IMG/VR virus record: IMGVR_UViG_3300031088_000645
Reading direction: 5' to 3' (one strand)
Length of the DNA: 56,397 nt
From: an uncultured virus (IMG/VR IMGVR_UViG_3300031088_000645)
Taxonomy: Duplodnaviria > Heunggongvirae > Uroviricota > Caudoviricetes
The translations under genes were made by a program, and so were the position numbers. Numbering within the stretch: position 1 is the stretch's first letter; every line of letters begins with the position of its first letter. Under the pieces are notes generated by a model. It saw nothing but the letters and a program-made list of their open reading frames with translations, was not told the origin of the DNA and did no database searches. This document shows, in pieces, positions 6,629 through 38,979 of this stretch.

Positions 6629-7048
6629 ATGGACGAATCGCAGTGGGAATCCACTTTGCCCCGGATGGCTAAGTCGCATCCTCATGCTGCTTCCATCGCA
6701 ACCGAGATGAAGAACCTCGGTATGACGTTTAGCGTCTTGGTCTCTATCCCCGCTGTGGTCTTCACCGCTGAGAAGTGGAGGGATGGACTCAACGATCTAC
6801 CCAGCAACTTCGGCGCTGTCGTCAACACGCTTATCGCAAGCGGCGAGGACTTGGACCGTGCGTACCTGTGGGCTACCATCTGTCTCAGTAATGGCTACAC
6901 GCCTGACGAGACGACCGTCCTGGCAAAGAGCGGGTTCGACTTCATCAAGGTCTTGGAGCACCTTCGTAGTGGCATACCACTTCAGGTTGTTCAGGAGCTA
7001 ATGGCAAACGAAATCGATTCCAGCATGATCAAGTCGCTCATCAGCTAG
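6629..7048 (+). CDS. Hypothetical protein with shared C-terminal DID module
   Basis: Leaderless start; ends ELMANEIDSSMIKSLIS. Confidence 0.7.
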   Translation: MDESQWESTLPRMAKSHPHAASIATEMKNLGMTFSVLVSIPAVVFTAEKWRDGLNDLPSNFGAVVNTLIASGEDLDRAYLWATICLSNGYTPDETTVLAKSGFDFIKVLEHLRSGIPLQVVQELMANEIDSSMIKSLIS

Positions 7049-7292
7049 TCGGTTTGTCATTGTCCTTCTGGAGGCTTATCCCACTATCAGCGGGACCATC
7101 CTTGCCGGGGTACGTAGGTTCTATCTCCGCTTTCCACTTCCGGTAGTACGAGAATGCCACCAACAAGAAGATGATGGCAGTGAAGAAGAACGCGGCGGAA
7201 TTCACGAGTCCGAGCACGAAAAACGGTATCGCTATTATCCCGAACGTCTCAGCGTAAGTCTGGTTCTCGCCCTTATGTTGGTTGTTAGTCAT
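7041..7292 (-). CDS. Small membrane protein
   Basis: AAAGGAG SD before MTNNQHK; hydrophobic hairpin. Confidence 0.6.
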   Translation of the reverse strand: MTNNQHKGENQTYAETFGIIAIPFFVLGLVNSAAFFFTAIIFLLVAFSYYRKWKAEIEPTYPGKDGPADSGISLQKDNDKPTS

Positions 7293-7339
7293 GGCATCTC
7301 CTTTACTCAAGGCTAGCTTGTGGTGTTGCGCAGAAACAG

Positions 7340-7380
7340 CGAAAGCCACCTGTGGCAATCAAATGCACAGGTGGCTTTCG
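7340..7380. terminator. Intrinsic terminator
   Basis: GAAAGCCACCTGTG/CACAGGTGGCTTTC. Confidence 0.7.
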
Positions 7381-7389
7381 GGTAGTGTC

Positions 7390-7740
7390 TTAGAAGAAGA
7401 CACCCTTGGTCATGCTGTAGCCCTCGGCATCCAGCCAGTTGTCCTTCAGACGGTGAGCGTGGTCCTGCTCGATGACGCGATACTGACGCTCGCGCTCTTC
7501 GGGCTTGAAGCTCTCGATGCGCTCGATGAACTCTTCGATGTCCTGTTCGGTACCGTACTCATCGCGGACCTCCAGCTTGTCGCTGTTGTAGCGCAGGAAG
7601 ATCTTCCATGCGTCGAAGGAGTCGAACCAGTCACCGGAGAGGATGACACCACTGCCGGTCTTTCCGATGTGCAGCTTGAGCGAACTCGTGAGCGAACTGT
7701 TACTGTCGATGTTGATGATTGCGTAATGGTTTGTGCTCAT
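7390..7740 (-). CDS. Phage-type hypothetical protein
   Basis: GGAGG SD; LHIGK...DEYG...WLDAEGY pattern reminiscent of small phage proteins. Confidence 0.65.
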   Translation of the reverse strand: MSTNHYAIINIDSNSSLTSSLKLHIGKTGSGVILSGDWFDSFDAWKIFLRYNSDKLEVRDEYGTEQDIEEFIERIESFKPEERERQYRVIEQDHAHRLKDNWLDAEGYSMTKGVFF

Positions 7741-7861
7741 ATGTGAACCTCCTGCTCACTAATCGGATACTTGTCTATTTGAATGTACTGGGTTCTGACT
7801 TGACTGTCAAGTTTTGGTGCGGTACGGTTGAATGAAGACGACGATAAAGGGAGGTGCTGAC

Positions 7862-8890
7862 ATGGTGGTAGGACTGATTTCTGGTCAGGAGTTTGAACCC
7901 ACGCAGGAATACCTTCTGAGTCGAACTCTTCACGATCTACAGAGCGATGACTCTCTTGTCGGTACGGAGAAGATCTATCGCGATTACAGCCTTCTACCTG
8001 ATGCCAAAGAGTTCAACGAATGGCTCAGCCAGGAAGCCTCCGACACCTATTCACAGGATGACATCGAGCAGATCACAAGCTCTCATTACTACAAAGAGCT
8101 TGGACCTTGGGTGCCAAAGGCTTTCTTCCTGAATGCCACTCCTGGTCCTTGGAAGCCTGAGTATGTGAGCAGGTGCTGTGGCAAAGCGGAGATGAAAGCC
8201 AAAGATAGATGGCTTACCCCAGCCGATGTCGCACACATCATCCTCAACCCTCCTGGTGGTCCGTACTTCCCCAAGCAACACAAGTACAAGATGCCCTGTG
8301 TCGTGCATGGCGATACAGCAGGGTTTGCTCCCCAGATAATCCCACCTGGCTCTGATTTCTACCGGACGGTTCGACCGACAACCATCTTCGAATTGGGCGT
8401 GTTGACACCTCGATTCGTCTATGGTGCAAGGAAGTTTGTCACCGCTGAACAGATGATCCATGCTCTCGGAATCTCATTCCAAAACAAAATGGGTTTTCCT
8501 GAGATGCCTCACTTCGACACCCACTTCAACCACGCCAATCACTTTGCAATGGCGCTCGGTGAATTGAAGTCCATCGTGCCAGAGAACCACGCACTTGCCT
8601 GGCTGATGCTAGCTGGGTGGCGGTCGAAGAATACCCGCAACCTGTATTCGCGCTTCCCTGCTGTCTCGTACCTCGTGGAGAAATCCACCGCTTCTGAGGT
8701 CTATGGCTACCTTGAAGTGGGTGTTGCCAACATCAACGAGGTCGTCAAGTTCATCAAGGCAGGGCTAGACAAGGAAACAGTCATGGCTTACTACGCCAGC
8801 AACGTCACGAAGATCAGCGTGATGAAGAGGATGACTAAAGCCGGTATCGACACCAATGTTATGACCGGTCTATTTAGAGGAGAGCTATAG
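7862..8890 (+). CDS. Hypothetical protein with shared C-terminal DID module
   Basis: GGGAGG SD (alternative start 7832); ends RMTKAGIDTNVMTGLFRGEL. Confidence 0.7.
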   Translation: MVVGLISGQEFEPTQEYLLSRTLHDLQSDDSLVGTEKIYRDYSLLPDAKEFNEWLSQEASDTYSQDDIEQITSSHYYKELGPWVPKAFFLNATPGPWKPEYVSRCCGKAEMKAKDRWLTPADVAHIILNPPGGPYFPKQHKYKMPCVVHGDTAGFAPQIIPPGSDFYRTVRPTTIFELGVLTPRFVYGARKFVTAEQMIHALGISFQNKMGFPEMPHFDTHFNHANHFAMALGELKSIVPENHALAWLMLAGWRSKNTRNLYSRFPAVSYLVEKSTASEVYGYLEVGVANINEVVKFIKAGLDKETVMAYYASNVTKISVMKRMTKAGIDTNVMTGLFRGEL

Positions 8891-9369
8891 TGTTCGACCG
8901 TTTCGAGATGACCTATGGCTCGCTGAGCATTCATCGCACACCCATGAGTTTCGATGATTGGGACAAGGTATACATGGTGTTCGATTCACTCGACGTGCAA
9001 TCCGATCAGGTCGAGGCTGTCATCATGCCAATCATCAAGGATGAGAAAGCGGCGCTTCCTTGGGTTATGCGCCTTGGGGTGTTCAACCGCCTCTTCAGGA
9101 AGAAGCTTGGTATCAAGTGGACGGAGCGCTATGAGTCGTTGCGAGCGATTGATCCTGAGGCAACCTCGGAGGAACTGGCTCGTGTATGGTTCGCCTCCTA
9201 TGCTGCCGAGGCGGCTGGCTATTCGTTCGAGAACTACATGAAGCGGGCGGTGACTGTCTGGAACAGCGCCAAGATCGTTCACTACGTCACACGGTTTGGG
9301 TTCACTAGCATGTTCTGCGCTCTTGATGCCGATCTCGACATGGAGATGATGGAGTCTCTGTCGGCATAG
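8890..9369 (+). CDS. Hypothetical protein with shared C-terminal DID module
   Basis: Coupled to the upstream stop; ends ALDADLDMEMMESLSA. Confidence 0.7.
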   Translation: MFDRFEMTYGSLSIHRTPMSFDDWDKVYMVFDSLDVQSDQVEAVIMPIIKDEKAALPWVMRLGVFNRLFRKKLGIKWTERYESLRAIDPEATSEELARVWFASYAAEAAGYSFENYMKRAVTVWNSAKIVHYVTRFGFTSMFCALDADLDMEMMESLSA

Positions 9370-9377
9370 CCCGAACA

Positions 9378-9418
9378 CACGAAAGCCCCGGTTCAACTAA
9401 GAGCCGGGGCTTTTCGTG
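9378..9418. terminator. Bidirectional intrinsic terminator
   Basis: GAAAGCCCCGG/CCGGGGCTTTTC between convergent genes. Confidence 0.75.
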
Positions 9419-9432
9419 GTGCGGATGTTGTG

Positions 9433-9645
9433 TCAGGAAAGCTCTTCCGCGAGGGCGGTGAACTCGAAGCCGTCGCTGGCTCGGACGATGAACATGCTGC
9501 CGGTCTCGTCGGGAGTGCGGAACTCCGGCGTGCCGACGATGTAGACATCCTGACCGTTGTACTTCATGAAGTTGAGGTTGTCGGTGGAGGACGTGAACAG
9601 CTTGACGAAATCGACCTGAGGGGCGGGAGCGGTTGCAGTGGACAT
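9433..9645 (-). CDS. Small hypothetical protein
   Basis: GAAAGG SD before MSTATAP; ends at terminator. Confidence 0.65.
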   Translation of the reverse strand: MSTATAPAPQVDFVKLFTSSTDNLNFMKYNGQDVYIVGTPEFRTPDETGSMFIVRASDGFEFTALAEELS

Positions 9646-9796
9646 GACGTGTACCTTTCGGTGAAATCAATGAGTGTTGCTTCGTGCTTTTACTATACTC
9701 CCTATCTTGGTAACCGCGCAACTCTGGATTAGAGTGTGTCTATCACCAGACCTCTTTGACTATTCACCGAAGTGCTGGTAGCTTGGTAGGACCACT

Positions 9797-10699
9797 ATGG
9801 AGGAAATCGTGACCTATCAAGCATCGCTCGGTCTGTTGGCTGTTGCCGACGAAGCCGTGTGCGATATGGCTGAGAGGAACCTCACGCTTGGTATCGATGA
9901 CGCGGATGACTACTTCTACCCTCTCGATGAGAGAGTGGCATACCCTAGAACCACGAAGCTAGATGACTTCGTGGCGAGCCTCAAAGATACTCGGGGTGAT
10001 GTCAACGACATCGCTAACTCTCGACTCCGAATGCTCTCACGCTTGAAGCATCACAACTTGGATGATAGCTACATTCCCATGCTTGTCGCTCTTCATCTTC
10101 GGCATGGTGAGTCGCTGTGGAACAGCACGAGCTTCCACGAAGCAACCGGTCTTGCCATCAAGCTCAACGCCGATGACTCACCGACATACTGCCTAGACGA
10201 AGATGGCAAGCTGACGGTGTTTGGTGTCAGCCTCATTGGTAGTCGTGATCTCCCGCTCGGGGCGCTTACCAAGCTTGCAGGTCGTGAATGTAATTGGACT
10301 GTGACGATGGGTGAATTGACCCATTACGTTCAGCGCTCATACGCATCCATCTACAAGAATGCTGACACTCATTCCACGTTTCCTAACAGGATGGATACGC
10401 GCCATAGGCTCAACTCTCCCCGTATGTTGTTCATGATCAACAGGTTTGTCGATGATGACTCGGCAGTGTCGTGGTTCTTCGCTTACCTGAACGACAGAAA
10501 TTTCACGGAGTCTCGTGACAGCGAGTTCACGGATCTCTTGGAGTTCCTATCTGTCGTTGGTCCATCTGGTCGTTTCGATGAGCTTGCCCCGGTGTTTATC
10601 GAAAAGCGGCACCACCTATCACCCCAGGTTATCGCTGAGATGTGCAACCACGACATCGACGAAGCAATCACAGAAAGCTTGTTCTCATACAATGGCTAA
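9797..10699 (+). CDS. Hypothetical protein with shared C-terminal DID module
   Basis: 300-aa ORF; ends EMCNHDIDEAITESLFSYNG. Confidence 0.7.
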   Translation: MEEIVTYQASLGLLAVADEAVCDMAERNLTLGIDDADDYFYPLDERVAYPRTTKLDDFVASLKDTRGDVNDIANSRLRMLSRLKHHNLDDSYIPMLVALHLRHGESLWNSTSFHEATGLAIKLNADDSPTYCLDEDGKLTVFGVSLIGSRDLPLGALTKLAGRECNWTVTMGELTHYVQRSYASIYKNADTHSTFPNRMDTRHRLNSPRMLFMINRFVDDDSAVSWFFAYLNDRNFTESRDSEFTDLLEFLSVVGPSGRFDELAPVFIEKRHHLSPQVIAEMCNHDIDEAITESLFSYNG

Positions 10700-11279
10700 G
10701 GCGCTATGGAGTCATGATGATCAGTGGAGTCAGCACGTTCGTTACGTTGCGGAGTGGGAAACAAAGGAAGATCCCACGGGCGAGCTTCTCACGCTTGCTG
10801 ACTTCCAAAGCATCGATTTCAACTCAATGGGTGCCTTTTCGACTCTTGGTTACTTTGGAGTGAGCTTTGAGTCCTTCAGTAGGTCGATGAAGAAGAACTG
10901 GATTGATGACAACTCGCCCTTGTTTGATGCTGTTGCAGCGAACATCCTTAACGACCCTGACGTTTATGATGCTAGTGACATCGCTATGATCGTCGCGCAT
11001 GACATTACCGCTGTCAAAAATCACCTACGAACGCTCAACCTGACGAGCGTCACAAGCGATTCAGACATGCTTGATTACGTCTTCCTTCTGACTCTTGCGG
11101 GGTCGCCTGACAGGGCAAGCGTCAGATACGTTCATTCACTCACACGCAGGCATGGTGTGCCTGCTGTGGCGAGGATGATCGTTGCCAAGGTGCCGTTCAC
11201 GAGCATAGACAGGTTCATTCAGAATGACATTGACCCCAGTCTCGCCTCAGATATCGCTCTAGGTGCTCAATTCTTGTAG
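10692..11279 (+). CDS. Hypothetical protein with shared C-terminal DID module
   Basis: Start MAKALW overlaps the upstream stop; ends FIQNDIDPSLASDIALGAQFL. Confidence 0.7.
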   Translation: MAKALWSHDDQWSQHVRYVAEWETKEDPTGELLTLADFQSIDFNSMGAFSTLGYFGVSFESFSRSMKKNWIDDNSPLFDAVAANILNDPDVYDASDIAMIVAHDITAVKNHLRTLNLTSVTSDSDMLDYVFLLTLAGSPDRASVRYVHSLTRRHGVPAVARMIVAKVPFTSIDRFIQNDIDPSLASDIALGAQFL

Positions 11280-11310
11280 TGATGCAGTGTTTCTATGAGA
11301 GCATTTTGCT

Positions 11311-11919
11311 ATGCAACCCGACTTCTCAGCCGTAGCACTTCTCGGAATCATCAATCACCGCGATGCTAACGATGCCGCGCAAGAGCCAATCCTCGATAGC
11401 TCAGCGCTCAATTACATCGCTGGCGCGCTTGTCTACATTGAGCTTGCTCGTATTGGTCGCCTTCAGCCGACTGGTAGCGGACAGGATGAGTTCAAGCTGC
11501 TTCCTTCTTCTGGCGAGACCGATCGTGTGACCGGTGAGTTCGTATCGAGCATCCCTGAGGTGTCCAACATCATGGACGATGGCTCGCGTGTAGGCAGCCA
11601 TGCCATCGAGCTTTACTCTGAGTCCATTGAGGCGGGTAGAAGGTCTCCTGACGGGCGCTGGGAGCTAACCAACGGCTTTGCCAAGGTGGCTCGGGGCGAG
11701 GGCACGGGTTCGTACGCTGCTAACGCACTAGCCACCCTCCTTGCGCAGGGTGAGATGGGTCGTATGGTCTCTGGTCTACTCGGTGACACCGACCAGGATT
11801 CCATCAAACAGATTCCCATTCATGAGTCGTTCTGGTCGGGAAGCGTTGAGTCTGTAAGGTTGGGTTACATCTCCGAAATCATCGGTGCGGCGAATACGAC
11901 ACTAAGCAACTTGGGTTGA
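11311..11919 (+). CDS. Hypothetical protein, possibly GPP34/GOLPH3-like; paralog of 45559..46221
   Basis: IAGALVYIELARIG resembles the LAGAxLxEL motif. Confidence 0.5.
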   Translation: MQPDFSAVALLGIINHRDANDAAQEPILDSSALNYIAGALVYIELARIGRLQPTGSGQDEFKLLPSSGETDRVTGEFVSSIPEVSNIMDDGSRVGSHAIELYSESIEAGRRSPDGRWELTNGFAKVARGEGTGSYAANALATLLAQGEMGRMVSGLLGDTDQDSIKQIPIHESFWSGSVESVRLGYISEIIGAANTTLSNLG

Positions 11920-12221
11920 TGCATATGGTTGCTATTGAGCTTCCCAAGTCCAATCTAAGACTCGGATTCTACACTGAATTGGGTCTTGCTGCCGAGAGTA
12001 GATTCAATGGCAAGGTAGACTCTGCTGCCGCCGAGATGTTTCTTCTCTTTGGCGAGACGGAGGCAATCGATATTCCTACCCTGAAAAGCTCGCTTGACTA
12101 CTCTGACGATGTTGTCAATGCAGCAATGTGGTTGCTTATCGATCACGACATCGTGGAGCTATCTTCCATCAGGGATCTGGAAATCACTGATGTGGGTCGT
12201 ATAGCATTAGGCTCCATCTAG
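11919..12221 (+). CDS. Putative winged-helix protein
   Basis: TGATG coupling; helix pattern ending LEITDVGR as in wHTH wings. Confidence 0.45.
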   Translation: MHMVAIELPKSNLRLGFYTELGLAAESRFNGKVDSAAAEMFLLFGETEAIDIPTLKSSLDYSDDVVNAAMWLLIDHDIVELSSIRDLEITDVGRIALGSI

Positions 12222-12262
12222 AGTAGAATTCTGCTAACCTTCGGTCGATAGAAGGAGATGAC

Positions 12263-12547
12263 ATGACATCCAAAGACATCCTTGAGTTCGTCAAAGACAA
12301 CTCGGAGGTTTACGACGAGGAATGGCTTCCGGTAATCGCTCGTACTCATGTGAAGCTTCTCTACATCGACCCTAACTACCAGATCCTACAGATCAAGGAG
12401 AAGTTCGGTGGTCTCCGTTACTACTACTCATCAGAGTTCAGCTTCGGAGATCCAGAACGCGACCTGATGGAAAGTATCGTCACTAGCGCAGAAGACCAGA
12501 TTGAAGAAATCGAGCGGGTAAGAAGCGAGAAGCGAAAGAATGCCTAA
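12263..12547 (+). CDS. Conserved phage-type hypothetical protein
   Basis: QIKEKFGGLRYY motif common in phage proteins; AAGGAG SD. Confidence 0.7.
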   Translation: MTSKDILEFVKDNSEVYDEEWLPVIARTHVKLLYIDPNYQILQIKEKFGGLRYYYSSEFSFGDPERDLMESIVTSAEDQIEEIERVRSEKRKNA

Positions 12548-13127
12548 CCAGCGCATCAAGATGAGTCCGATGGGACCGTCATTCAACATCAATCCTGACC
12601 ATCACGTTGAGGCACTCCATGAGTGGGAAGAGGGTACCTTCTTGCAGGGTGGTGACAGGGGTATCGTCGTCACGCGAGACCCAGAGAACCCCACCTACCG
12701 CACTGCATTCGTTGAAGCCTTTCCTCCCAGTAGCGGATTCTTCCGAGGTGAAGGTTCCAGCATTGCAGAGGCAGAGAAGAATGCGTGGGACAAGTGGAGA
12801 CGTTCTGAGGAATGCCCTGGTCATGAATGGGATGCTCGCGGATATACCAACGGCGGCGGGTTCTGCAAGATCTGCAAGAGGTTTGGATCTAACGTCTTCA
12901 CCGGAGAACAGCTAGGTCAGTTCTGCGCGACGTGTGGTGTCGGTACCACCTACGGCAATGTAGGGATGGATAAGGACAACAAGGTGTGGTACTGCAAAGA
13001 ACATATTGACGTGGCGCACAGGAGCCTGTACGACATCCTGCTCGCTATTCCCGAGGATGAGCGCACAGAGTCACAGCGGATGCAGTTCAGCCATCTCAGC
13101 TTCCTTTTGAGCGATGATGACGAGTAA
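12540..13127 (+). CDS. Cys-rich hypothetical protein (putative Zn binding)
   Basis: FVEAFP...RGEG, CxxH, CxxC, CxxC, CxxH. Confidence 0.65.
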   Translation: MPNQRIKMSPMGPSFNINPDHHVEALHEWEEGTFLQGGDRGIVVTRDPENPTYRTAFVEAFPPSSGFFRGEGSSIAEAEKNAWDKWRRSEECPGHEWDARGYTNGGGFCKICKRFGSNVFTGEQLGQFCATCGVGTTYGNVGMDKDNKVWYCKEHIDVAHRSLYDILLAIPEDERTESQRMQFSHLSFLLSDDDE

Positions 13128-13140
13128 CACCCGTCGAGCG

Positions 13141-13569
13141 CTATTCGGTGAGTAGGAACCAACCCCGATAACCCTGAGGGATGTTCGGGTGGTTCTCAAG
13201 CATCTCCTTCAAGAACGGCAATCGAGCGTTCTGCATTGCTTCGTCATCGGCATATGGCTTCGCCCACCATGACGCTTTGCCGTCCCAGCATCCTTCTGGG
13301 TTACCGCCGTATCGAGCGGTCTTGATGTTGGCGATAAAGTCGTCTATTGACCAAGGGTGCTGCACATCGATGCTGCCATCCCATAGCGTTCCGGTGAATG
13401 CACCGAGGCGACCGTTACTGCGCTTGCTGAACCAGACCGCCTGCACGCTGTAACGCACATAGTCTTTACCACCACTGACGGAGCCGGGTGTGAGGTCCGC
13501 CACTAGTGAACTTTCATCAATGGCGTAGAGCTTTTTGGAAGCGCGGAAGTCGTACGGGATGAGAGGCAT
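13141..13569 (-). CDS. Hypothetical protein
   Basis: 142-aa ORF; leaderless TATCCT-N7-ATG. Confidence 0.65.
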   Translation of the reverse strand: MPLIPYDFRASKKLYAIDESSLVADLTPGSVSGGKDYVRYSVQAVWFSKRSNGRLGAFTGTLWDGSIDVQHPWSIDDFIANIKTARYGGNPEGCWDGKASWWAKPYADDEAMQNARLPFLKEMLENHPNIPQGYRGWFLLTE

Positions 13570-13673
13570 GTAAGAGAGGATACCTCATGCGCTTGAAACA
13601 ACCAAATAGTCAAAATTGATTGTTTTTGGTCAAAAACGTAAACAACGTACCTAGCTGGTGTTATGGTCTGCTC

Positions 13674-14309
13674 ATGACATCACCTAGAAATCGCAATCTT
13701 GTTTCTTACTTCGCTCAGAAGACTACCCTTTCAGAAGGACCAACGCCGCCACCCACCTCCAACGCGGAGCTACAGGAGTCTACCGCTGAGACAATGGAGC
13801 GCGTAATCAATGCAAGCGGTAACATCATTGAACTCATTAACACCATCAGCAAACTCAATACCCAGTTCGATACCGAACCAACAGATCAAGACGTTCTGCG
13901 TTCGATTAACCTGTTGTTAGAGATACGAGACCTAATTGATGAAGAGGTGAGCTATCAGGCTGCCGTGTTATCCGTGGCGGAGTCGGGCACACTGTCGAAT
14001 AGGGAGATTGCCTCTGTAGCAAGACTTGCGCCAGCTACTCTTTCAAAGATCGTCAAAGGGTATCAGGAGCAAGTAAATGATGTATGGTCCAGCGCCGTGA
14101 AAAGGAGATGGGGGTTCACCCCTGAGAGCGTTGATGCCGTTGCTGAGTGCGAGCATCAGAAGTTTCTTAGCGATAAGAACGAACTGATCAATCAGATGTC
14201 CGTCGAAAGAATGAAGTACGTAAACTCTCTTCCTGAGGACCAGCAAAAAGAATTCTGGGAGAAGGAAGTTTCGATTGAACGTGTACAAGGCAGGCTTAAA
14301 AGGGTATAG
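13674..14309 (+). CDS. Putative HTH DNA-binding protein
   Basis: LSNREIASVARLAPATLSKIV is HTH-like; leaderless TATGGT-N6-ATG. Confidence 0.55.
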   Translation: MTSPRNRNLVSYFAQKTTLSEGPTPPPTSNAELQESTAETMERVINASGNIIELINTISKLNTQFDTEPTDQDVLRSINLLLEIRDLIDEEVSYQAAVLSVAESGTLSNREIASVARLAPATLSKIVKGYQEQVNDVWSSAVKRRWGFTPESVDAVAECEHQKFLSDKNELINQMSVERMKYVNSLPEDQQKEFWEKEVSIERVQGRLKRV

Positions 14310-14407
14310 CGGTCACAGCAGTATGACTTTGATGTAGGCGCACGTTACATTCTCATGAAATCTACCAAAACATGAATGGATGTCAAGTTTCGATGTCATC
14401 ATGAGAT

Positions 14408-15010
14408 ATGACTCCGACACAGCCGCCAGGGTGGTACCTGCTGAATCAAGAAGATCGACAAGCTCAGTATTGGAATGGGCAGTCTTTCACTGGTGACATG
14501 TCCCCGCGATTCAACCATGACTTCCCGGTATTCGATGCTGGTCTTGGCACACAAACGAGTCGCAGACGGTCACCTCGTAGAGCGCAACAACCTCGACAGA
14601 GACTGATACTTACTGGACCCACAACAGGTAACGCTCGTGTGGATGCGGTGGGAAATGGCATACGAAACGTCTTCATGGCTTTTGTGTTTGCGTTTATAGC
14701 CATCGTGTTCGTGTCCTGTTCGATAGCTGTGGCTACAAGCGGAGGTCAGGATGACCTAGCAAGTACATCTGAACCAACGTCACAGGAAGTAGCGGTTGAA
14801 CCAGTGCCAGAACCTGTTGTGGAGCAGCCACCGGTTGTGCCTGAACCAGCGCCGGTAGTAGCACCTCCGGCTCCCGTAGCACCTCCGGTGTCGTACAAAA
14901 ACTGTGCTGCTGTTCATGCGGCGGGAAAGCCTTACATCATGCCAAACGAACCGGGCTGGCAAGATAGATTTGACGGTCACCCCAAGAATGGTATTGGTTG
15001 CGACGGATAA
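14408..15010 (+). CDS. DUF2510-like + TM + Pro-rich linker + Excalibur-like domain protein
   Basis: PPGWY...YWNG at N-terminus; YKNCAAVHAAG...DGHPKNGIGCD at C-terminus. Confidence 0.75.
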   Translation: MTPTQPPGWYLLNQEDRQAQYWNGQSFTGDMSPRFNHDFPVFDAGLGTQTSRRRSPRRAQQPRQRLILTGPTTGNARVDAVGNGIRNVFMAFVFAFIAIVFVSCSIAVATSGGQDDLASTSEPTSQEVAVEPVPEPVVEQPPVVPEPAPVVAPPAPVAPPVSYKNCAAVHAAGKPYIMPNEPGWQDRFDGHPKNGIGCDG

Positions 15011-15021
15011 ATCATCTCAAT

Positions 15022-15071
15022 AAACAAGCTCGGATGGTTGATCACATCAGATCAACCATCCGAGCTTGTTT
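15022..15071. terminator. Long bidirectional terminator hairpin
   Basis: AAACAAGCTCGGATGGTTGATC/GATCAACCATCCGAGCTTGTTT between convergent genes. Confidence 0.75.
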
Positions 15072-15586
15072 CAGTTCAAAACGTATGCGTCAAAGATGAT
15101 GAACAGTACAAGAAGCACGTTCGCGACCATCATTCCGAGGATGACGGAGAACACTGCTGACTGACCTATGACCGGTAGAACCGAATCCTTGAACGTCAGC
15201 TTGGTATGACCGATTCCCTCATTGAACGCAGTGTGCAGCCACTCTTGGAAGGTCATCTCACCCAGCCTCTTGTTGCGCTCCACATGCGCACTCAGTGAGT
15301 CTGGATCTTCAACCTCGAATCCCATCGTCCCTTCGGTCGTTTCATCGAAGAACGTGTTTTCGAGACTGTACACCTCGTGATGCACTTCGTACTCCGCCCT
15401 CATTGCATGAAGGAAGAACAGTATCGGTATGACCGCTAGACCGATGAGACCACCTAGTAGGTAGACCCACCAGAAGACGTGTCCGTAGCGGTAGAAGGAG
15501 ATGGCGACAAAGAGGAAGCTGGATAGCACGAAGAAGTAGGTTCCGGGTGTGAACCTGACGCTCACTACTCTCTGTTCGCTACTCAT
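15071..15586 (-). CDS. Membrane protein
   Basis: Three hydrophobic segments; leaderless TAATCT-N6-ATG. Confidence 0.65.
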   Translation of the reverse strand: MSSEQRVVSVRFTPGTYFFVLSSFLFVAISFYRYGHVFWWVYLLGGLIGLAVIPILFFLHAMRAEYEVHHEVYSLENTFFDETTEGTMGFEVEDPDSLSAHVERNKRLGEMTFQEWLHTAFNEGIGHTKLTFKDSVLPVIGQSAVFSVILGMMVANVLLVLFIIFDAYVLN

Positions 15587-15815
15587 CGATACAGATTATC
15601 ACGTCCCAATTGGGCAACAGCTTGTTGCGCAAATCGTTAGCTGAGTACATGAGACGGATTGACTGAAAAGAAGCCGATAATCATGCACTTTATGCAACAT
15701 TGACGAAGTTGTCCTTTATAGTTGCCTTCGATCAACTAAGTGCGAGTTCGTTACGTGTGGCAAAGAAGCTTCCGATAGAGGCTTGCAACCCACATTCACA
15801 GTAAGGAACTCACCT

Positions 15816-17444: not shown

Positions 17445-17447
17445 GAG

Positions 17448-20240: not shown

Positions 20241-20252
20241 CACTGCGGACAT

Positions 20253-21910: not shown

Positions 21911-22885
21911 ATGATTCGGATTATGTACAGCGACGATGACAGGACTGAGTTCAATCATCCGTGGGCGCGTCTTGGTTCCAAGGCATCTAAATCTGTAGGT
22001 AGTAGCCGATGGTTGACTAGACCCAACCAAGCGTTGCTGCCGGATGTCATGTCGATGCAAGAGTTCATCATCCATGCAGAATCGGACAGTAACGAAAACT
22101 CACAGCCCAGCCGTGACACTACCCTAAGGTTCGCTGCTTCTCATGAGTGGACTACGTATATCGACAAGCATCAAAACCGTCAAGACGGCGATATCAAGCT
22201 CAGAAAAGAAATCGACACATCGTTCGGCGGTAACAAGCTGAACCCAGCAGACATCATTGATATCTGGGACAACAGCCCTTACCTGTACAAGATGCTGCTT
22301 GACGATTTTGCAGCATCAAAGTTCGTGGAGTACCAGTTAATTGATGACAAGATACAGCCAGTAAATCGTTTAGGGGTACATCTCGACGACCTGACTTTTA
22401 GCTCGTATGCGTCACCGATGATCGAATACGTCCTGGTCAAGGAGCCTACTGCAATGATGGTGAGTATCGTCACCATCTACAATGAAGAGGCAATCAGCAG
22501 CAGGATGTTCAAAAGGTTTTCTCGCAATGGTCTTAGCATTGTTGACTTTGCCGAGGGTACACGGATGTTTGAAGGCATCGAGTCCATCTATGTCGATACC
22601 ATTATCAAGCATCTCCGGGAAGAGCTTTACTCCGAGCCTCACGAGGTGAAAATACCCATCGCCGCATTGTCATCAGGCGATGGTTTCGCGCGGTGGATCT
22701 ATGAGGTCTATCTTCGTCAGAGCAAGAACATTGACATCTCCGACTTGGAAGAGATTGCCACCACAACTCTGTTGCAATATGCCCGCGAGGGAATCTTCAA
22801 GCCGCGTGTGGTGAAGAATTGTTGCCACAGTGGTATCGACCCCGCACTTGCTGGTGAGATGCTACGGACTAGCGTTGACAATTAG
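21911..22885 (+). CDS. Hypothetical protein with shared C-terminal DID module
   Basis: Ends CCHSGIDPALAGEMLRTSVDN; start may be 21923. Confidence 0.7.
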   Translation: MIRIMYSDDDRTEFNHPWARLGSKASKSVGSSRWLTRPNQALLPDVMSMQEFIIHAESDSNENSQPSRDTTLRFAASHEWTTYIDKHQNRQDGDIKLRKEIDTSFGGNKLNPADIIDIWDNSPYLYKMLLDDFAASKFVEYQLIDDKIQPVNRLGVHLDDLTFSSYASPMIEYVLVKEPTAMMVSIVTIYNEEAISSRMFKRFSRNGLSIVDFAEGTRMFEGIESIYVDTIIKHLREELYSEPHEVKIPIAALSSGDGFARWIYEVYLRQSKNIDISDLEEIATTTLLQYAREGIFKPRVVKNCCHSGIDPALAGEMLRTSVDN

Positions 22886-23188: not shown

Positions 23189-23770
23189 ATGGATAAGCCG
23201 ATTACATGGGTAGAGCGGATGGGTTCTAGTCATTCCGATTTTCTCGATCAGATAGGCGTTCCTGACGATAAGCGTTCTTTCGCTTGGTCGAACTACCATG
23301 TCACTCGTTTCGCACTCGATGAGGTGCTGAGTGAAGATGGCACTTACGCGATGGCTCAACTGGTAGGTGACCAGTACCTAGGCAAGATGGTAGAAAGCAT
23401 CGCAGAGGAAGCGATCCTCCTTTGGAGATACGCCAATATCAAGGAAGATGGCAGTCTTCCAGGAATTATCGTCACCCATGCTGCCCGTATCCTCATGATA
23501 GAGATAGAGCGCTATCAGGAAGCCATCTACACGCTGACTAGTTCTCCTGCGGAGATGTATTCGCTGTTGATTGTATCGCTTGCGTCTAGCAAGAAGATGG
23601 GTCAAGAGATATTCATGGAGCGGTGGTATCCGATTGTTCGTGCTTACCCAACGCGCGTAATCTTGCCAGTGCTAGACAATGGTGGTAGTCTCGAATCACT
23701 AGAGAAGTTCCACCAAAACGGGTTGGATAGTGACATTCTTCTCTCATTCACTACATCAAACAGGAGTTGA
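23189..23770 (+). CDS. Hypothetical protein with shared C-terminal DID module
   Basis: Ends FHQNGLDSDILLSFTTSNRS. Confidence 0.7.
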   Translation: MDKPITWVERMGSSHSDFLDQIGVPDDKRSFAWSNYHVTRFALDEVLSEDGTYAMAQLVGDQYLGKMVESIAEEAILLWRYANIKEDGSLPGIIVTHAARILMIEIERYQEAIYTLTSSPAEMYSLLIVSLASSKKMGQEIFMERWYPIVRAYPTRVILPVLDNGGSLESLEKFHQNGLDSDILLSFTTSNRS

Positions 23771-27558: not shown

Positions 27559-28245
27559 ATGAGCACCAACACTACGACCACGACCAGAAAGCGTCGCAAG
27601 CTGCTACCTATGCTGATCGCTACTGGTGCTGTGGCTAGCCTGTTGCTCGCGTTCGCCAACACGAATGCGCTCTCGGGCTTCACTGCCAGCATCAACAACA
27701 CGAACAACACCATCGGTGCAGGAACCCTGCTCATGAGCGAGACCCAGGACGCTACCACGTGTCTTTCGTCCGCTGCGGGTACGGTTACGGCTTCCAACGC
27801 TGGTACCTGTTCGACCATCAACAAGTTCGGTGGCTCCAACGCCGTCTACCCTGGTGGTCCCCTCTCGGTTTCCACCGTGACCATCCGTAACGCTGGTACC
27901 ACGCCCGCCAACACCTTCAACCTCACCCCTTCGGGCTGCGTTCAGGTGAACAACGGCGCTACCAACGGCACCGCGACCGACTTCTGCAACAAGGTCAACA
28001 TCACCATCGATGACGTTACCGGTGGTAACTGCGTCTTCCCCGCCGCTGCTACGCCTTGTGCTGCAACGCCGACCACTGCGGGTAACCTCGCTCTGCTGGG
28101 CACCGCACCGCTTGGTCTTCACGTGCCGATGGCTCCTGGTGACGCTCGCGTGTTCAAGTTCACCCTCCAGTTGGACAACTCTGCAACGAACGCCTACCAG
28201 GGTCTTGCAGCCAACGAGGCTCTGCTTTGGAGCTTCGCTTCCTAA
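27559..28245 (+). CDS. SipW-class secreted TasA/camelysin-like fibre subunit 2
   Basis: ALSGFTASINNTNNTIGAGTLLM; paralog of 25128..25808, same LLWSFAS end. Confidence 0.75.
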   Translation: MSTNTTTTTRKRRKLLPMLIATGAVASLLLAFANTNALSGFTASINNTNNTIGAGTLLMSETQDATTCLSSAAGTVTASNAGTCSTINKFGGSNAVYPGGPLSVSTVTIRNAGTTPANTFNLTPSGCVQVNNGATNGTATDFCNKVNITIDDVTGGNCVFPAAATPCAATPTTAGNLALLGTAPLGLHVPMAPGDARVFKFTLQLDNSATNAYQGLAANEALLWSFAS

Positions 28246-28303
28246 GTAGAACCCCAGCAACACAACTCCATCACTGAATCCAGCCTGACAGAAAAGGTTA
28301 CCC

Positions 28304-29719: not shown

Positions 29720-29730
29720 GAGTCTCAACC

Positions 29731-30597
29731 ATGAACAGCACCCGTGTTCTCCACAAGGCACTAGCGGCGTTTCTGCTGCTAGCTGCTGGTGTGGCGATCC
29801 TGAGTGCTGGTGCCTTCTATCTCACTGGCGGTAAGACTTTCACTATCCAGACACCCTCGATGAGTGAATATGCCCCTGTGGGCACAACCGTTTTCTCGCG
29901 TGAGGTTCCGTTCGATTCCATCGAGGTGGGTGACACTATCGTGTTCAACCCTCCGGCATCGAACTCGCAGTACTTCCACCGTGTTCACTCCATTGATGGA
30001 TCTGGTGGTATCCACACCAAGGGTGATTTGAACGAGTCTGTTGACCCGTGGACGCTACATGCCGAAGATGTCCACGGCTCTGAGTCGTTCCGTATCATCG
30101 GACTGGGTTGGCTCATCAAGGCTCTACCCATCTTCCTCATCGGTGGAATCTTGCTGTGGACGCTAACTCACTACTACACAGTTCCTATCTGGGTGCTACC
30201 CACTCGTGTCGTTGGTCTATCGTTCATGGCTGCGTTTTCGGCATTCATTATCAAGCCATTCGTTCGAGCCGACGTTATCTCGCAGACCGTTTCTGAGGGC
30301 GTTGCAACAACCGTCTTTGTTCCTACCGGTCTGTTCCCTATCAAGGCGGTCGCTCAGGGTGGTAATTCTGATATCAGCTACCCCGGTAATCTCGGTAACG
30401 TCATGACAAGTGATCAAGATCCTAGTGGGTACTTCAATGTCATCCTGACTGCCAACTTGGGCTTCTGGGGCTGGGTCATTCAGGTGGCAGTGTGGTCCAT
30501 TCCAACCATCATCATGGTAATCTACGCATTCAAGGTGAAGAAGCTCTACCCTGAATACTTCCCCTCTCCTGCGCACCGAGAGACAGCAAAGGTATGA
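29731..30597 (+). CDS. sipW: Signal peptidase I, SipW/ER type (S26B), with membrane C-terminal extension
   Basis: TPSM (catalytic Ser), GDTIVF, HRV (catalytic His), TKGDLNESVDP. Confidence 0.85.
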   Translation: MNSTRVLHKALAAFLLLAAGVAILSAGAFYLTGGKTFTIQTPSMSEYAPVGTTVFSREVPFDSIEVGDTIVFNPPASNSQYFHRVHSIDGSGGIHTKGDLNESVDPWTLHAEDVHGSESFRIIGLGWLIKALPIFLIGGILLWTLTHYYTVPIWVLPTRVVGLSFMAAFSAFIIKPFVRADVISQTVSEGVATTVFVPTGLFPIKAVAQGGNSDISYPGNLGNVMTSDQDPSGYFNVILTANLGFWGWVIQVAVWSIPTIIMVIYAFKVKKLYPEYFPSPAHRETAKV

Positions 30598-31205
30598 ACG
30601 GCAGCGAAGTAGTGCTTACTGTTCCTGCCGACTATGCCTGGGGTAACAGCGAGATGGGTGGCGATAAAACCATCGGTCTTGGGATGACACAGGAACAGGC
30701 TAGTCAGTACGTCACTCTTGAAGAGATGCGTTCTGCTGGATGGGTGAACGTTGCCAGCATCATGATGGCATTCGGTGGCGTTACTCCGGGGTGGCGTGAC
30801 TTCTCCCGACTGGTCAAGCGGGTCGGCGTTCACCAGTTCGACAGAGTGCTCATGGAGGGGATTGCTACCTGCCCTCGACCCGATTGGACAGAAGATAGGG
30901 GTGCAAAGCACACGCCGCAGTACACCGACTTCTACGTTTACATATCTCAGAGTCTGGAATTACTCAAAGAGACCACTGAGTACAACGTCAAGAGTTCCAA
31001 GCTAGACCTGGCGTACATGATTGGTATGACCTGCGGGGTGGAGAGTGACCCACAGGCAGTGCTTCGAGCCTACCGCAAGGTTGGTTTGCTGAGATTCATC
31101 GCGGAGTACAAGAGAAACATTGGGGTAGACATGTTTCTCCGAATGGTAGATAATGACATCGACATCGAGCTAGTAACGAAACTACACGAAGGAATCGCAT
31201 TATGA
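30594..31205 (+). CDS. Hypothetical protein with shared C-terminal DID module
   Basis: ATGA overlap with sipW; ends MVDNDIDIELVTKLHEGIAL. Confidence 0.7.
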   Translation: MNGSEVVLTVPADYAWGNSEMGGDKTIGLGMTQEQASQYVTLEEMRSAGWVNVASIMMAFGGVTPGWRDFSRLVKRVGVHQFDRVLMEGIATCPRPDWTEDRGAKHTPQYTDFYVYISQSLELLKETTEYNVKSSKLDLAYMIGMTCGVESDPQAVLRAYRKVGLLRFIAEYKRNIGVDMFLRMVDNDIDIELVTKLHEGIAL

Positions 31206-32009: not shown

Positions 32010-32843
32010 ATGCATGTAGACATCATTATGCCGAGCGCCTCCGAGCGTATTGAAGAGCGCCCATTTGGTGATGTCAGAGGGGGCGATCTAGTCTTTTTGC
32101 GTCACTCGACGCATCCAGAGTGGGAGTTCTCAGGTCGAGCGATTGTAGATGCTGTCGCCAATAGCTCTGTGTGCCTGCGTGGGGCTTGGTATAGAGCAGA
32201 CGAGGGCTGGGTCATCAATGTCATCGAACAGCCCGCATATGCTGACGTAGAAGAGCCTCGTGAGGGCAGGAACGAGTCGTGGACTGATGCTCTTGAAGGA
32301 AGATATGGCAGCACTCGTGTTGCTCGCAGATCGCTAGAAGAACTGTCTCAACTGATGCCCCTAGCGGACGTAAAGCGCCAGATGACCGATGAGGCTTATC
32401 AGGCGCTCGTCGGTATGGAGAAGCATGTCTCCTGGGATACCGTCAGCAAGATGTGCAGGAAGCTGGGAGTGGAACGCGCCTCTGCATGTATCGAGTCACT
32501 CCACTACTCGGTGAAAGAGCTTTACGAGCGATACCGTGACCTTGACTTCGGTGAAGATGGCGGACTGGAACTGGCATATGCCGAAATCTCATCCTATTCC
32601 AAAGCAAAAGCCGTCATTCCTGATGGCACTGATGCCGAGTTGTTTACCTTGCAGGGCATGACCGAGTACTTCGGATACAACGCTGAGGATATTCACGAGG
32701 TGGTTAGCATCCTGGGTTACGACCAGTTGTACATGCTGATCGAAGACAAGAGGCTGGATATGGAGTCGGTATTGGAGATTGCGCGCCGTAGTAAGGATTA
32801 CGACATCGACGTAAGTCTGATGGTAGATCTCGTCAATCCGTAA
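32010..32843 (+). CDS. Hypothetical protein with shared C-terminal DID module
   Basis: TTGACG-17-TAAGCT-N6-ATG; ends SKDYDIDVSLMVDLVNP. Confidence 0.7.
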   Translation: MHVDIIMPSASERIEERPFGDVRGGDLVFLRHSTHPEWEFSGRAIVDAVANSSVCLRGAWYRADEGWVINVIEQPAYADVEEPREGRNESWTDALEGRYGSTRVARRSLEELSQLMPLADVKRQMTDEAYQALVGMEKHVSWDTVSKMCRKLGVERASACIESLHYSVKELYERYRDLDFGEDGGLELAYAEISSYSKAKAVIPDGTDAELFTLQGMTEYFGYNAEDIHEVVSILGYDQLYMLIEDKRLDMESVLEIARRSKDYDIDVSLMVDLVNP

Positions 32844-36543: not shown

Positions 36544-36546
36544 CTC

Positions 36547-37089
36547 TTAGGCATCAAACTGGTCGAAGCTCAACGGCTCCCAAGAACCGTAGAACTGCTC
36601 AAGCACCGCTCTGCCAATTGTGCGATATGTTTCTACGACCGTCTCGTCAGGAAGTGCATTGAGTTCATCTATATCGACGACAACGATGTCTGTTGACTCG
36701 CCATCCTCAGGAGCAAGTGCGGGAGGTCCATCAGCAACAAAAGCGTATGTCACGTCAGTGTGTGAATGCTTCTTCGGGGTGCCGGGGTACTCCTTGGTCG
36801 AGTAGCATAGGGGCACCGGATGCAAAGTTGCTTCCGCAAGGAATGAGATGCGCTGCTTAGGCTGAAGTACCGAAAGCTGACTATGAAGATAGCCGGTCTC
36901 TTCTGTCACTTCATGAAGCACTGTCTCCCAAGGTGACTCGTTGGTCTCAACGTGCCCACCGAACATCATCAACCGACCTATCTTCCGATGCACATGCAGC
37001 ATGATCGATGGCTTCGGTGTATCTGTCCTGACGATGTAGAAGCTGACCGTGTGGTCATGCTCTCCTTCTTCGGTATGAATGTGGGGCAT
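36547..37089 (-). CDS. Nudix hydrolase
   Basis: Nudix box GGHVETNESPWETVLHEVTEETG; leaderless TACGCT-N6-ATG. Confidence 0.88.
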   Translation of the reverse strand: MPHIHTEEGEHDHTVSFYIVRTDTPKPSIMLHVHRKIGRLMMFGGHVETNESPWETVLHEVTEETGYLHSQLSVLQPKQRISFLAEATLHPVPLCYSTKEYPGTPKKHSHTDVTYAFVADGPPALAPEDGESTDIVVVDIDELNALPDETVVETYRTIGRAVLEQFYGSWEPLSFDQFDA

Positions 37090-37303
37090 GAACGGAGCGT
37101 ATCAGCTTGATATCTCGATGTATACAGTTCTCGTCTATAGCCCCTGTCTAAAGAACGCCAAAGGTGACATCTGACAGCACTTTTTCACCAAGAAATATCT
37201 CACGGAGTGAGTCTCGTACATCGTAAGAATGACATTGGATATCACTAAGGTAACATCAATCAAAAACGGGTCTGACCACCTGTTTTGTCTCTATCATTCG
37301 AAC

Positions 37304-38053
37304 ATGAGAACACGTCCACTACTCGGCATCGTCGCCATTGCTACATCTGTCTTCATCCTCACGGGCTGCACTTCTGGTTCGCCTGAACCCACTCCGAAGC
37401 CCACTGTCTCAAAGACAGCTACGCCTACTCCCAAGCCTAGTGCGACCTCTACTCCCACACCGACCCCGACAAAGGCTCCGGTAACCCCTCCTAAGCCCGT
37501 TGTCTACAACACCACTATCATCATTGGTTCCGACAGCCTCATTGTTGAGAAGGGTCAGGACGTACAGAAGTTTTCCTACGACGAAGCCCCTGCGAGCGCT
37601 ATTGCCGCAGTGACTAACACCACTGGTATTGAGCCTGAGTCAACCTACAGCGGCGAAGAGAACTACTGCTGGTATCAAATGACCACGATTGACTGGGGAG
37701 AGCTAAAGCTGAACTTCAGCAAGCAGGATGCTGGAACGTCAGAATACTGGACCGTTGGGACCAACACCGATGATGGAGATCCTTTGGTCTCGGTCATGTC
37801 GCCACGTGGATACAAGCCGGGCGACCTCATGTCGGAAGTAATTGCCAACCATCCTGAAATCTTGCACGAGTCAAGTGAGTATGAAGGAACCTCCTATGAG
37901 ATGGCGCTCGATGAGCAGTCTTTGGCATACCCCACGACTCCCGAAGGTACATACGATGGCAAGCAGTATGATGCTTCCGGCACCATCTTGAGCGGTACAA
38001 ACGGTGTCATTGAAAGCGTGTCTGCTCGCCAGGGTCTTTACGGCGACTGCTAA
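37304..38053 (+). CDS. Lipoprotein with Pro/Thr linker
   Basis: Lipobox LTGC; leaderless TATCAT-N6-ATG. Confidence 0.75.
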   Translation: MRTRPLLGIVAIATSVFILTGCTSGSPEPTPKPTVSKTATPTPKPSATSTPTPTPTKAPVTPPKPVVYNTTIIIGSDSLIVEKGQDVQKFSYDEAPASAIAAVTNTTGIEPESTYSGEENYCWYQMTTIDWGELKLNFSKQDAGTSEYWTVGTNTDDGDPLVSVMSPRGYKPGDLMSEVIANHPEILHESSEYEGTSYEMALDEQSLAYPTTPEGTYDGKQYDASGTILSGTNGVIESVSARQGLYGDC

Positions 38054-38095
38054 GAACGATTTGCTATCGGCTATCCGACTTGGTACTATCCGAGC

Positions 38096-38461
38096 ATGGC
38101 TGATAACAAAAACCTTGATGCGTACGTCACGTGGCTAGAGAAGACGCTCAACTCATACGCAAAAGAGTGCGAGAGCTATGTTCGGGCGAATGATGAGAGT
38201 CCTTCCGATAGCCTCTCCCGACCCTACTATGCACTTCGCGAGGCGTGGGATTCATACTGCATCGTAGTGAGGCATGATAGCGCCTACAGTCCATCGCGGG
38301 CGCTATCGAGCTTCATCGAGGCTTACTCGAACGATGAGTCTGAGCCTTTGGAGCTTTACAAGGTCTACATCAAGACCGTGTTCCGGCAGAACCACAAGTC
38401 GAATCGCAACGAAGAGCGCATGGTGGGTAAGATCAACAAGTTGTTGTCTAGCGTTCACTAA
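38096..38461 (+). CDS. Hypothetical protein
   Basis: TACTAT-N6-ATG leaderless start. Confidence 0.6.
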   Translation: MADNKNLDAYVTWLEKTLNSYAKECESYVRANDESPSDSLSRPYYALREAWDSYCIVVRHDSAYSPSRALSSFIEAYSNDESEPLELYKVYIKTVFRQNHKSNRNEERMVGKINKLLSSVH

Positions 38462-38979
38462 TGATTGCCGCTCGTCGTGGTCTCAGTAGGAATGCGGAGT
38501 TAGCGAATAGCATCATCATGTCAACGAGCTACATGCTAAATAAGACCGAAGCAGCAGGTATCACGAGGACCGAGTATAAGAAGCTAGCTGAGTTTTACGA
38601 TATCAAAAAACTATCTGATGGTGGTAATGCGCTCTACCGCTATGCAGCGAGAAAGCCAGTTACGCCGGACATGTCTACCTTGTGGGAAAGGATAGTTGGG
38701 GACCGTGGAAAGAACGGTCTAGCACGTGATAGTCGTAACCTAACCAGAAGTCTTCATCGAGCGGGATATGACCGAGAGGTAGTGCTACTTACATGGGGGC
38801 TATGGGTCGTCTTGGACTCCATCGATGTTCCTGTTGTTGCCGAAGCGTTTTATAGGTTTGGAGGACGGCGCGTCATAACTCTGCTGGATAGAGGGCTGAG
38901 TCTTGACACAATCCAAGATTGGCTTTCGCAGGACATTGATGCCGACATCATCGATTCGATGTTCACTCTTGATCTTTGA
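38461..38979 (+). CDS. Hypothetical protein with shared C-terminal DID module
   Basis: TAATG coupling; ends DWLSQDIDADIIDSMFTLDL. Confidence 0.7.
   Translation: MIAARRGLSRNAELANSIIMSTSYMLNKTEAAGITRTEYKKLAEFYDIKKLSDGGNALYRYAARKPVTPDMSTLWERIVGDRGKNGLARDSRNLTRSLHRAGYDREVVLLTWGLWVVLDSIDVPVVAEAFYRFGGRRVITLLDRGLSLDTIQDWLSQDIDADIIDSMFTLDL

Follow-up and report, generated by a model that had tools for sequence, protein, structure and literature searches.

Ten genes in a 56,397-nt stretch of DNA from an uncultured virus (IMG/VR record IMGVR_UViG_3300031088_000645; the whole stretch is called the window here) are, as far as their sequences allow us to judge, a lineage-restricted family. All that they detectably share is a C-terminal array of short helices, of which the last is position-locked. 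We refer to their products as DID proteins and name each open reading frame (ORF) by its stop position, p7048 being the one that stops at 7048 (Table 1). The interpretation that we favour, tentatively, is that of a lineage-restricted, fast-diverging gene family with a putative C-terminal protein-protein adaptor domain. The original prediction, made from the letters of the window, had proposed ten unrelated proteins that end in the same helical tag. All ten C-termini that it quoted were recovered in the ORF translations, on the + strand and at the stops given in Table 1. The ORF ends stood as predicted, whereas two starts were corrected through homologues, that of p7048 by the 142-aa proteins P0006 and P0036 (83-85% identical) and that of p11279 by P0002 (MAKALW..., 195 aa). 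A homologue of p9369, P0008, has equal length and is 98% identical, p10699 has seven homologues that are 97-100% identical, and the Atlas record of p8890 starts at residue 11.

The shared end can be written as the pattern [DGE][IL]Dxx[LIMV]xxx[LMFI], which was counted across 471 six-frame segments, each running from stop to stop and 50 aa or longer. It has 12 matches, ten of which are the DID ORFs, and in every one of these (10/10) the motif ends 2-7 residues ahead of the stop. The two matches outside the family lie internally in 49943-51949(+) and in a 63-aa antisense segment. Across 500 shuffles of the residues the pattern matched 2.46 times on average (maximum 8), and near a C-terminus only 0.18 times (maximum 2), which bears out the predicted enrichment at C-termini over shuffled controls (10 observed, 0.18 expected). 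The pattern was derived from the same ten sequences, so the match count is partly circular; the small number of off-target matches and the constant distance from the stop are not. When profiles of the last 30 aa were built with one member left out, the omitted member ranked 10-14 among 679 six-frame segments, with p23770 at rank 14/679 (E 2.2), and in every run its alignment fell at the very C-terminus. With a profile of the last 58 aa, no eleventh member was found among the 679 segments of the window, the best non-member having an E of 0.077. By these counts and profiles the motif is real and position-locked, with little information outside the last helix.

Around the stops, an alignment of the DNA has in common only the codons GAC-ATC-GAC, with variable third bases and unrelated downstream DNA. 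Conservation thus lies in the protein, not in the DNA, and a translated DNA repeat is ruled out by this alignment; tandem repeats, tRNA genes and Rfam elements are absent from the window. To read the shared end as chance, as compositional bias, or as a repeated element such as a terminator or recombination site translated at gene ends, one could point to a pattern that is short, degenerate and defined post hoc, and to weak leave-one-out E-values. Such a reading would have to accommodate shuffles that give at most two C-terminal matches against the ten observed, a DNA alignment with no shared element past three codons, the lack of tandem or Rfam elements, and two distant relatives (P0014 and P0018, described below) that keep the motif. 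We give it almost no credence.

That the shared end is helical had been proposed from sequence and is supported by AlphaFold models, in which the module consists of three to five short helices of about 9 residues each, about 13 residues apart. When the last 60 aa of p7048 were modelled on an alignment of the ten paralogous ends, five short helices were predicted (2-8, 13-22, 26-34, 39-47 and 52-59; pLDDT 76.5). The model of full-length p38979, built from eight sequences, one of them a relative at 23% identity, is all-alpha and has ten helices (pLDDT 65.7, pTM 0.67), the last four at 123-133, 135-143, 148-156 and 161-169; residues 91-140 are its most confident stretch, and confidence drops toward the C-terminus. 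The DID helix, originally taken as the conserved unit, therefore survives as the last helix but not as the whole unit, which is longer, about 38-60 aa. This last and best-kept helix has the form [N/D/G]-[D/G]-[I/L]-D-x-x-h-h-x-x-h and is followed by a free tail of 2-7 residues. By our own reading, each helix unit opens with Gly, Asn or Asp, a hydrophobic residue and then Ser, Thr, Asp or Pro, which would form a helix cap; in the last helix the invariant Asp may be the cap, and the Ile or Leu before it may anchor the helix. A position matrix of the terminal unit detected no upstream copies in the DID proteins, and the description of the units as a tandem repeat rests on helix spacing and reading by eye, not on sequence statistics.

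Reliable alignment across the family is limited to the last 38 residues or so. Just one of the 45 hhalign pairs exceeds 50% probability (p7048/p38979, 86.7%, 38 columns), and the best blastp pair, at E 0.004, matches the C-terminal 34 aa of p23770 with p38979. The N-terminal parts had been described as unrelated. Upstream of the shared end neither hhalign nor blastp detects similarity, and to that extent the description is right; true unrelatedness does not follow. In the cluster of five genes predicted at 6.6-11.3 kb, tandem DID genes with partly overlapping start and stop codons are indeed found, and this arrangement favours old duplication and divergence over the shuffling of a mobile module.

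Such overlaps recur across the family. The stop of p8890 overlaps the GTG start of p9369, the ATG of p11279 sits within the last codons of p10699, and p31205 overlaps at both ends, its start with the stop of an S26 peptidase gene and its own stop with the next ORF. DID genes often overlap the stop or start codons of their neighbours (8887-8892, 10692-10699, 30594-30597, 31202-31205 and 38458-38461; TAGTG, ATGGCTAA, ATGA), which indicates operons with translational coupling. A clear Shine-Dalgarno sequence is missing before most starts. Three adjoining pairs have a large gene followed by a small one, p8890/p9369 and p10699/p11279, both with stop/start overlap, and p22885/p23770, with a 91-aa ORF between. 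The last of these pairs is flanked by two minus-strand ORFs, 21362-21835(-) and 24051-24533(-), that have a 41-aa C-terminal stretch in common (41% identical, E 3e-7).

A profile of the ten ends, searched against 1.84 billion representative proteins, returned 21 matches at E <= 1e-3. The window's own families account for ten of these and distant relatives for two (P0014 and P0018); the other nine were judged spurious, being ankyrin, formin-repeat, M56-peptidase and low-complexity proteins aligned via many short stretches. Only two credible relatives are thereby added to the families of the window, in agreement with the proposal of an element-specific expanded family. P0014 spans 94 aa and matches the last 94 aa of p8890 at 46% identity; being a fragment, it shows orthology for that end only. 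P0018 has 170 aa, lies on a 654-kb contig and is colinear with the full length of p38979 at 23% identity, so at least one member is matched by an orthologue of its own in a distant relative, and the paralogues are old. Word-indexed searching, whether from p38979 or from its profile, led to P0001 and P0018 alone. Close variants of the DID proteins (83-100% identical) occur on contigs of up to 412, 637 and 805 kb. Because contigs of 805 kb from this lineage were in the searched collection and no further family was seen, the results suggest that the family is confined to this island, within the limits of the profile.

Other collections yielded no relatives. In phage databases, megablast of 6000-24000 and tblastn of p8890 gave no match, nor did IMG/VR scans with p38979, with p8890 and with an exact 40-mer taken from the window, and metagenome scans with an alignment of p8890, P0014 and P0004 or with P0018 gave no confirmed relative. 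The p38979 (A3) profile had no convincing match in 401 Patescibacteria genomes or in Saccharimonadia genomes (0/401), and the A1 profile had none in Saccharibacteria genomes (0/4 and 0/5) or in huge-phage records (0/2). The stretch 6400-11300 is itself present in 20 public runs from 14 studies; apart from one coded organism, their labels are phyllosphere, plant, straw, leaf litter and food metagenomes. Contigs no longer than reads, from two metatranscriptome libraries, fall within p7048, p8890 and p11279 and cover 9 and 4 of 30 bins. They are a weak hint that these three genes are transcribed; DNA carry-over may also account for them.

None of the ten DID proteins (0/10) has a family match in Pfam (E <= 0.01), PHROGs, NCBIfam or PADLOC. 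With E relaxed to 10, the ten 60-aa modules matched no consistent Pfam family and gave four unrelated single matches, and a profile search of PDB sequences with the modules returned nothing significant, its one row being ZntR at E 0.84. Structural comparison was equally unproductive: Foldseek found no significant match in the PDB (best E 3.8 for the module and 0.79 for p38979) or in BFVD (best E 0.73), and the best VIA-align scores (for the module Z 5.3, to a designed cage; for p38979 Z 4.1) are under the tool's noise level for helical models. ESM Atlas models of p8890 and p32843 are of low confidence and gave no usable feature match. The structural check suggested by the original prediction thus yielded a modelled helical module and no significant match to a known helical-repeat family. 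In the literature, including the available portion of bioRxiv 10.1101/2025.01.22.634366, we found no description of the DID module. By these searches the DID domain is without detectable relative in any library searched.

We propose a model in which the module is a putative protein-protein adaptor. Through it the N-terminal regions, which are variable, mostly acidic and cytosolic, would be tethered to a single common partner or to one another. The large-then-small neighbours p8890/p9369, p10699/p11279 and p22885/p23770 may pair through it. Most of the ten proteins are acidic (pI 4.6-7.9). They lack signal peptides and membrane segments, a reading that uses polar N-termini and simple hydropathy and no dedicated predictor; the maximum 19-residue hydropathy across the ten is 0.68-1.72, and there is no N-terminal hydrophobic stretch. 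Net charge runs from -6 to +1 over the last 20 residues and from -6 to +2 over the last 40. With such a charge the module is unlikely to bind DNA.

Several observations weigh against an adaptor. Family-library scans detected no partner, secretion-system or shell gene in the window. In p38979, residues 91-140 span helices upstream of the module as well as its first helices, and a flexible linker between module and body is seen by eye in none of the ten sequences (0/10). As the best-predicted stretch crosses the module border and no linker is present, the segment resembles a portion of some larger helical domain rather than a tag that could be detached. In comparisons of strains, variability in the last 17 residues is about that of the rest of the protein (9/153 vs 95/1422 variable sites), and there is thus no sign of extra short-range constraint on a tag; the stretch just upstream of them is more variable (43/387 sites, mostly in p38979 and p11279). 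The E-values of the leave-one-out profiles are weak (2.6e-4 to 2.6), as is the signal beyond the last helix, and an antisense segment, 22412-22669(-), outranks the omitted member in six of the ten leave-one-out runs.

Some of these points would be expected if the ten proteins were simply duplicated paralogues, with the C-terminal helices as the slowest-evolving part of one all-alpha fold, no tag function and no shared partner. The five tandem genes, several with overlapping stop and start codons, fit such a history, as do the missing linker and the ordinary variability of the last 17 residues. The p38979 model is one compact all-alpha protein whose best stretch crosses into the module, and hhalign gives weak, colinear, C-terminus-anchored alignments of p38979 with p11279, p23770, p31205 and p10699 (E 1e-3 to 6e-3, probability 6-20%). 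Yet the proteins range from 139 to 352 aa, upstream similarity is insignificant in 44 of the 45 hhalign pairs, and the low-confidence Atlas model of p32843 gives a weak hint that its N-terminal part is rich in beta structure (a weak likeness to small beta-barrel domains, TM below 0.5), unlike the all-alpha p38979. It is also unusual for a core element that the terminal helix alone is retained, 2-7 residues from the end, despite deep divergence. Plain paralogy is in our view the chief rival account, though a rather unlikely one. A more specific function, that of a putative C-terminal signal for translocation or recruitment, would make the DID proteins substrates of a secretion or transfer machine and variable effectors delivered to a host cell, for example through a monoderm-type type IV coupling protein or a virion or compartment loading route. 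The extreme C-terminal position, the short free acidic tail, the lack of a Sec signal and the variable upstream parts are consistent with this, and so are the neighbouring surface and attachment genes (pilin-like proteins with Ig domains, LamG, Excalibur, a lipoprotein) and a second, N-terminal tag (IVDKNG) on five other island proteins. In the available portion of a preprint, type IV systems are described as widespread in ultrasmall epibiotic bacteria, with no substrates named there (bioRxiv 10.1101/2025.01.22.634366). However, scans of the window's 76 ORFs turned up no secretion ATPase, coupling protein, capsid or shell gene. Known C-terminal signals are unstructured or much larger, and in p38979 the segment is modelled as part of a folded domain; we consider a translocation signal improbable.

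Nucleic-acid binding, with the module as a helix-turn-helix (HTH) or helix-hairpin-helix (HhH)-like domain and the family as regulators or DNA-associated proteins, is in our view very unlikely. The turn and second helix of HTH and HhH domains resemble, by eye, the unit G-[IL]-[SD]-x-x-x-h-x-x-h, and fold searches returned weak rows for MerR N-terminal domains and for DnaD-like and KorB domains (Z 3.3-4.1), besides single weak MerR matches in sequence (Pfam E 0.06, and the ZntR row above). These fold scores are far under the tool's noise level for helical models, the module is acidic, and no HTH or HhH family of Pfam, with E up to 10, appears in more than one of the ten modules. A direct look for HhH found no HHH Pfam match, and the second Gly of G-h-G is replaced by the invariant Asp. 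The adaptor reading remains the one that we prefer. It is nevertheless tempting to speculate, as a distinctly long shot, that the DID module is a putative recognition domain of an undescribed delivery or recruitment route in a plant-surface episymbiont or giant mobile element, with ten fast-evolving cytosolic proteins as effectors for one machine and the IVDKNG proteins as a second cargo class; in that case the island would offer a first set of substrates, defined by sequence, for a system of this kind.

Time and again, the discovery of secretion signals, docking systems and cargo-loading peptides has started from a terminal module common to proteins that are otherwise unrelated. If the DID module does bind one partner, that partner would open a way into the biology of the island as a whole, and the ten proteins would make up a list of candidate effectors. 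If it binds none, the family would be a clean example of paralogue divergence with one terminal helix retained. The family in question has no relatives in Pfam, PHROGs, NCBIfam, PADLOC or PDB sequences and lies in a surface and attachment island that recurs in plant-surface metagenomes.

Table 1. DID-family ORFs and other features of the window.
Feature	Position	Strand	Length or content	C-terminal end	Basis or remark
p7048	6629..7048	+	139 aa	GIPLQVVQELMANEIDSSMIKSLIS	ORF and translation
p8890	7832..8890	+	352 aa, possible start at residue 11	KAGIDTNVMTGLFRGEL	ORF and translation
p9369	8890..9369	+	159 aa	DADLDMEMMESLSA	ORF and translation
p10699	9797..10699	+	300 aa	NHDIDEAITESLFSYNG	ORF and translation
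p11279	10692..11279	+	195 aa	QNDIDPSLASDIALGAQFL	ORF; start from homologue
p22885	21911..22885	+	324 aa	HSGIDPALAGEMLRTSVDN	ORF and translation
p23770	23189..23770	+	193 aa	QNGLDSDILLSFTTSNRS	ORF and translation; weakest member
p31205	30594..31205	+	203 aa	DNDIDIELVTKLHEGIAL	ORF and translation
p32843	32010..32843	+	277 aa	DYDIDVSLMVDLVNP	ORF and translation
p38979	38461..38979	+	172 aa	SQDIDADIIDSMFTLDL	ORF and translation
IVDKNG ORF	17483-18145	-
IVDKNG ORF	18761-19756	+
IVDKNG ORF	42288-43256	+
IVDKNG ORF	47277-48350	+
IVDKNG ORF	55709-56395	+
Two tandem pairs and peptidase	25128-30597		TasA-like plus LamG protein, twice, then SipW-like S26 signal peptidase
Pilin-like group	49949-55606		49949, 53175 and 54128 with common type IV pilin-like N-terminal domain

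The DID genes are set among genes that are mostly orphans. The left edge of the window falls inside a type I-E pair, cas5e and cas6e (5-992); cas1 and cas2 were not recognised among the ORFs that follow downstream, and no CRISPR array was found in the window. Elsewhere the recognisable genes encode an MFS transporter, a GNAT protein, a NUDIX hydrolase, two metallophosphoesterases, Excalibur domains and a lipoprotein with a Pro/Thr linker. In the tandem pairs ahead of p31205, the TasA-like copies (226 and 254 aa) are 58% identical to each other and both end in LLWSFAS, and the LamG-domain copies (480 and 471 aa) are 38% identical; it is the SipW-like peptidase that follows them whose stop overlaps the start of p31205. 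The five IVDKNG ORFs carry a near-identical N-terminal motif, [KR]x(I/P)IVDKNG[KR]xT(T/H)V, about 10-25 residues from the start, and one has a GNAT domain. A motif search finds this tag in none of the ten DID proteins, as predicted. Close homologues of 47277-48350 bear the precomputed label PF27633, on which we found no paper, and an IVDKNGK DNA pattern in one of 401 genomes, internal to an ABC permease, was taken as chance. Just downstream of the DID cluster, 11311-11919(+) forms a distant paralogue pair with 45559-46221(+) (26% identical over 195 aa, E 1.8e-9), with no known family.

The three proteins of the pilin-like group have in common an N-terminal region of about 60-140 aa that is homologous to type IV pilins and has no G|FTLxE cleavage motif, with variable C-terminal parts. 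Protein 52000 shares with 49949 a C-terminal part that bears He_PIG, and He_PIG Ig domains were detected in both. Homologues of the pilin-like N-terminal domain occur in 20 of 301 Saccharimonadia genomes and in none of five Microbacteriaceae (0/5). They are ordinary type IV pilins, so the taxon of the replicon is not fixed by them. The MFS transporter (15783-17444) is nearest to Actinomycetota proteins (49-60% identical) and about 54% identical to those of four Saccharibacteria metagenome-assembled genomes; a quick tree gives it a very long branch (1.65) apart from the Saccharibacteria copies, which nest inside Actinomycetota. A 136-aa protein encoded at 39029-39439 matches phrog_24030, annotated as RNA ligase, at E 2.7e-27 and has homologues of 37-40% identity in Caulobacter and Ralstonia jumbo phages and in uncultured phages of 462-485 kb. 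The presence of a lipoprotein, pilins and a transporter speaks for a cell or a large plasmid. The bearer may be an uncultivated plant-surface microbe or a mobile element, the candidates being a small episymbiont-like genome, a giant element and a phage.

Among known systems, the effectors of Xanthomonadales type IV secretion offer an obvious comparison. Their XVIPCD, of about 120 aa with a Gln-rich tail, binds the coupling protein VirD4. There too a single genome has one C-terminal domain on roughly a dozen proteins whose N-terminal parts are unrelated, and the bearers are cytosolic and have no Sec signal. In contrast to that domain and its tail, the reliable DID unit has about 40-60 aa, and the 76 ORFs of the 56-kb window include no detected coupling protein or type IV gene. 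Dockerins, which have two calcium-binding loops and belong to secreted cellulosomal enzymes with signal peptides, are likewise short, internally duplicated C-terminal modules on many proteins that dock on one scaffold. Unlike the dockerin bearers, the ten DID proteins have no signal peptide; no cohesin-like gene was seen, and Pfam Dockerin_1, with its two calcium-binding segments of about 22 residues, was unmatched by the proteins (E <= 0.01) and by the modules (E up to 10). For a comparison with cargo-loading peptides, encapsulin and bacterial microcompartment (BMC) shell families were sought among the window ORFs and none was found.

Other resemblances are of geometry or of evolutionary pattern. 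The mTERF proteins and TAL effectors have tandem helix-turn units with a recurring G-h-[S/D]-x-x-x-h, and the module gave weak fold rows to both (MTERF4 Z 4.8, TAL effectors Z 4.1), within noise. Their repeats are two-helix, nucleic-acid-binding and 30-34 aa long, whereas the DID units are single-helix, acidic and about 13 aa long, and neither the DID proteins nor the modules have a matching Pfam family. Another resemblance in shape is to the SOUBA solenoid of overlapping UBA domains (PDB 4ae4), in which short helices about 13 residues apart form overlapping three-helix bundles, often at the C-terminus and, in UBA, protein-binding. It is the one row that recurs near the top for both models, at noise-level scores: 4ae4_B is the top row for p38979 (Z 4.1, 78 aligned, rmsd 3.4, residues 82-169) and ranks third for the module (Z 4.4, 60 aligned, rmsd 4.4). 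At such scores SOUBA may serve as a fair geometric analogy for short helices 13 residues apart, and no more; the proteins and modules have no UBA match in Pfam, and no ubiquitin-like gene was noted nearby. As far as the consulted portion of PMC10730637 describes it, the Theileria Tpr family is hypervariable, expanded and clustered in the genome, with a conserved C-terminal domain and some copies that have cross-species orthologues. That family is eukaryotic and its C-terminal domain membrane-associated, whereas the DID proteins are soluble and bacterial or element-encoded, and the resemblance is limited to the evolutionary pattern. A shared terminal module on variable proteins is thus a known theme, and this particular domain is a new instance of it.

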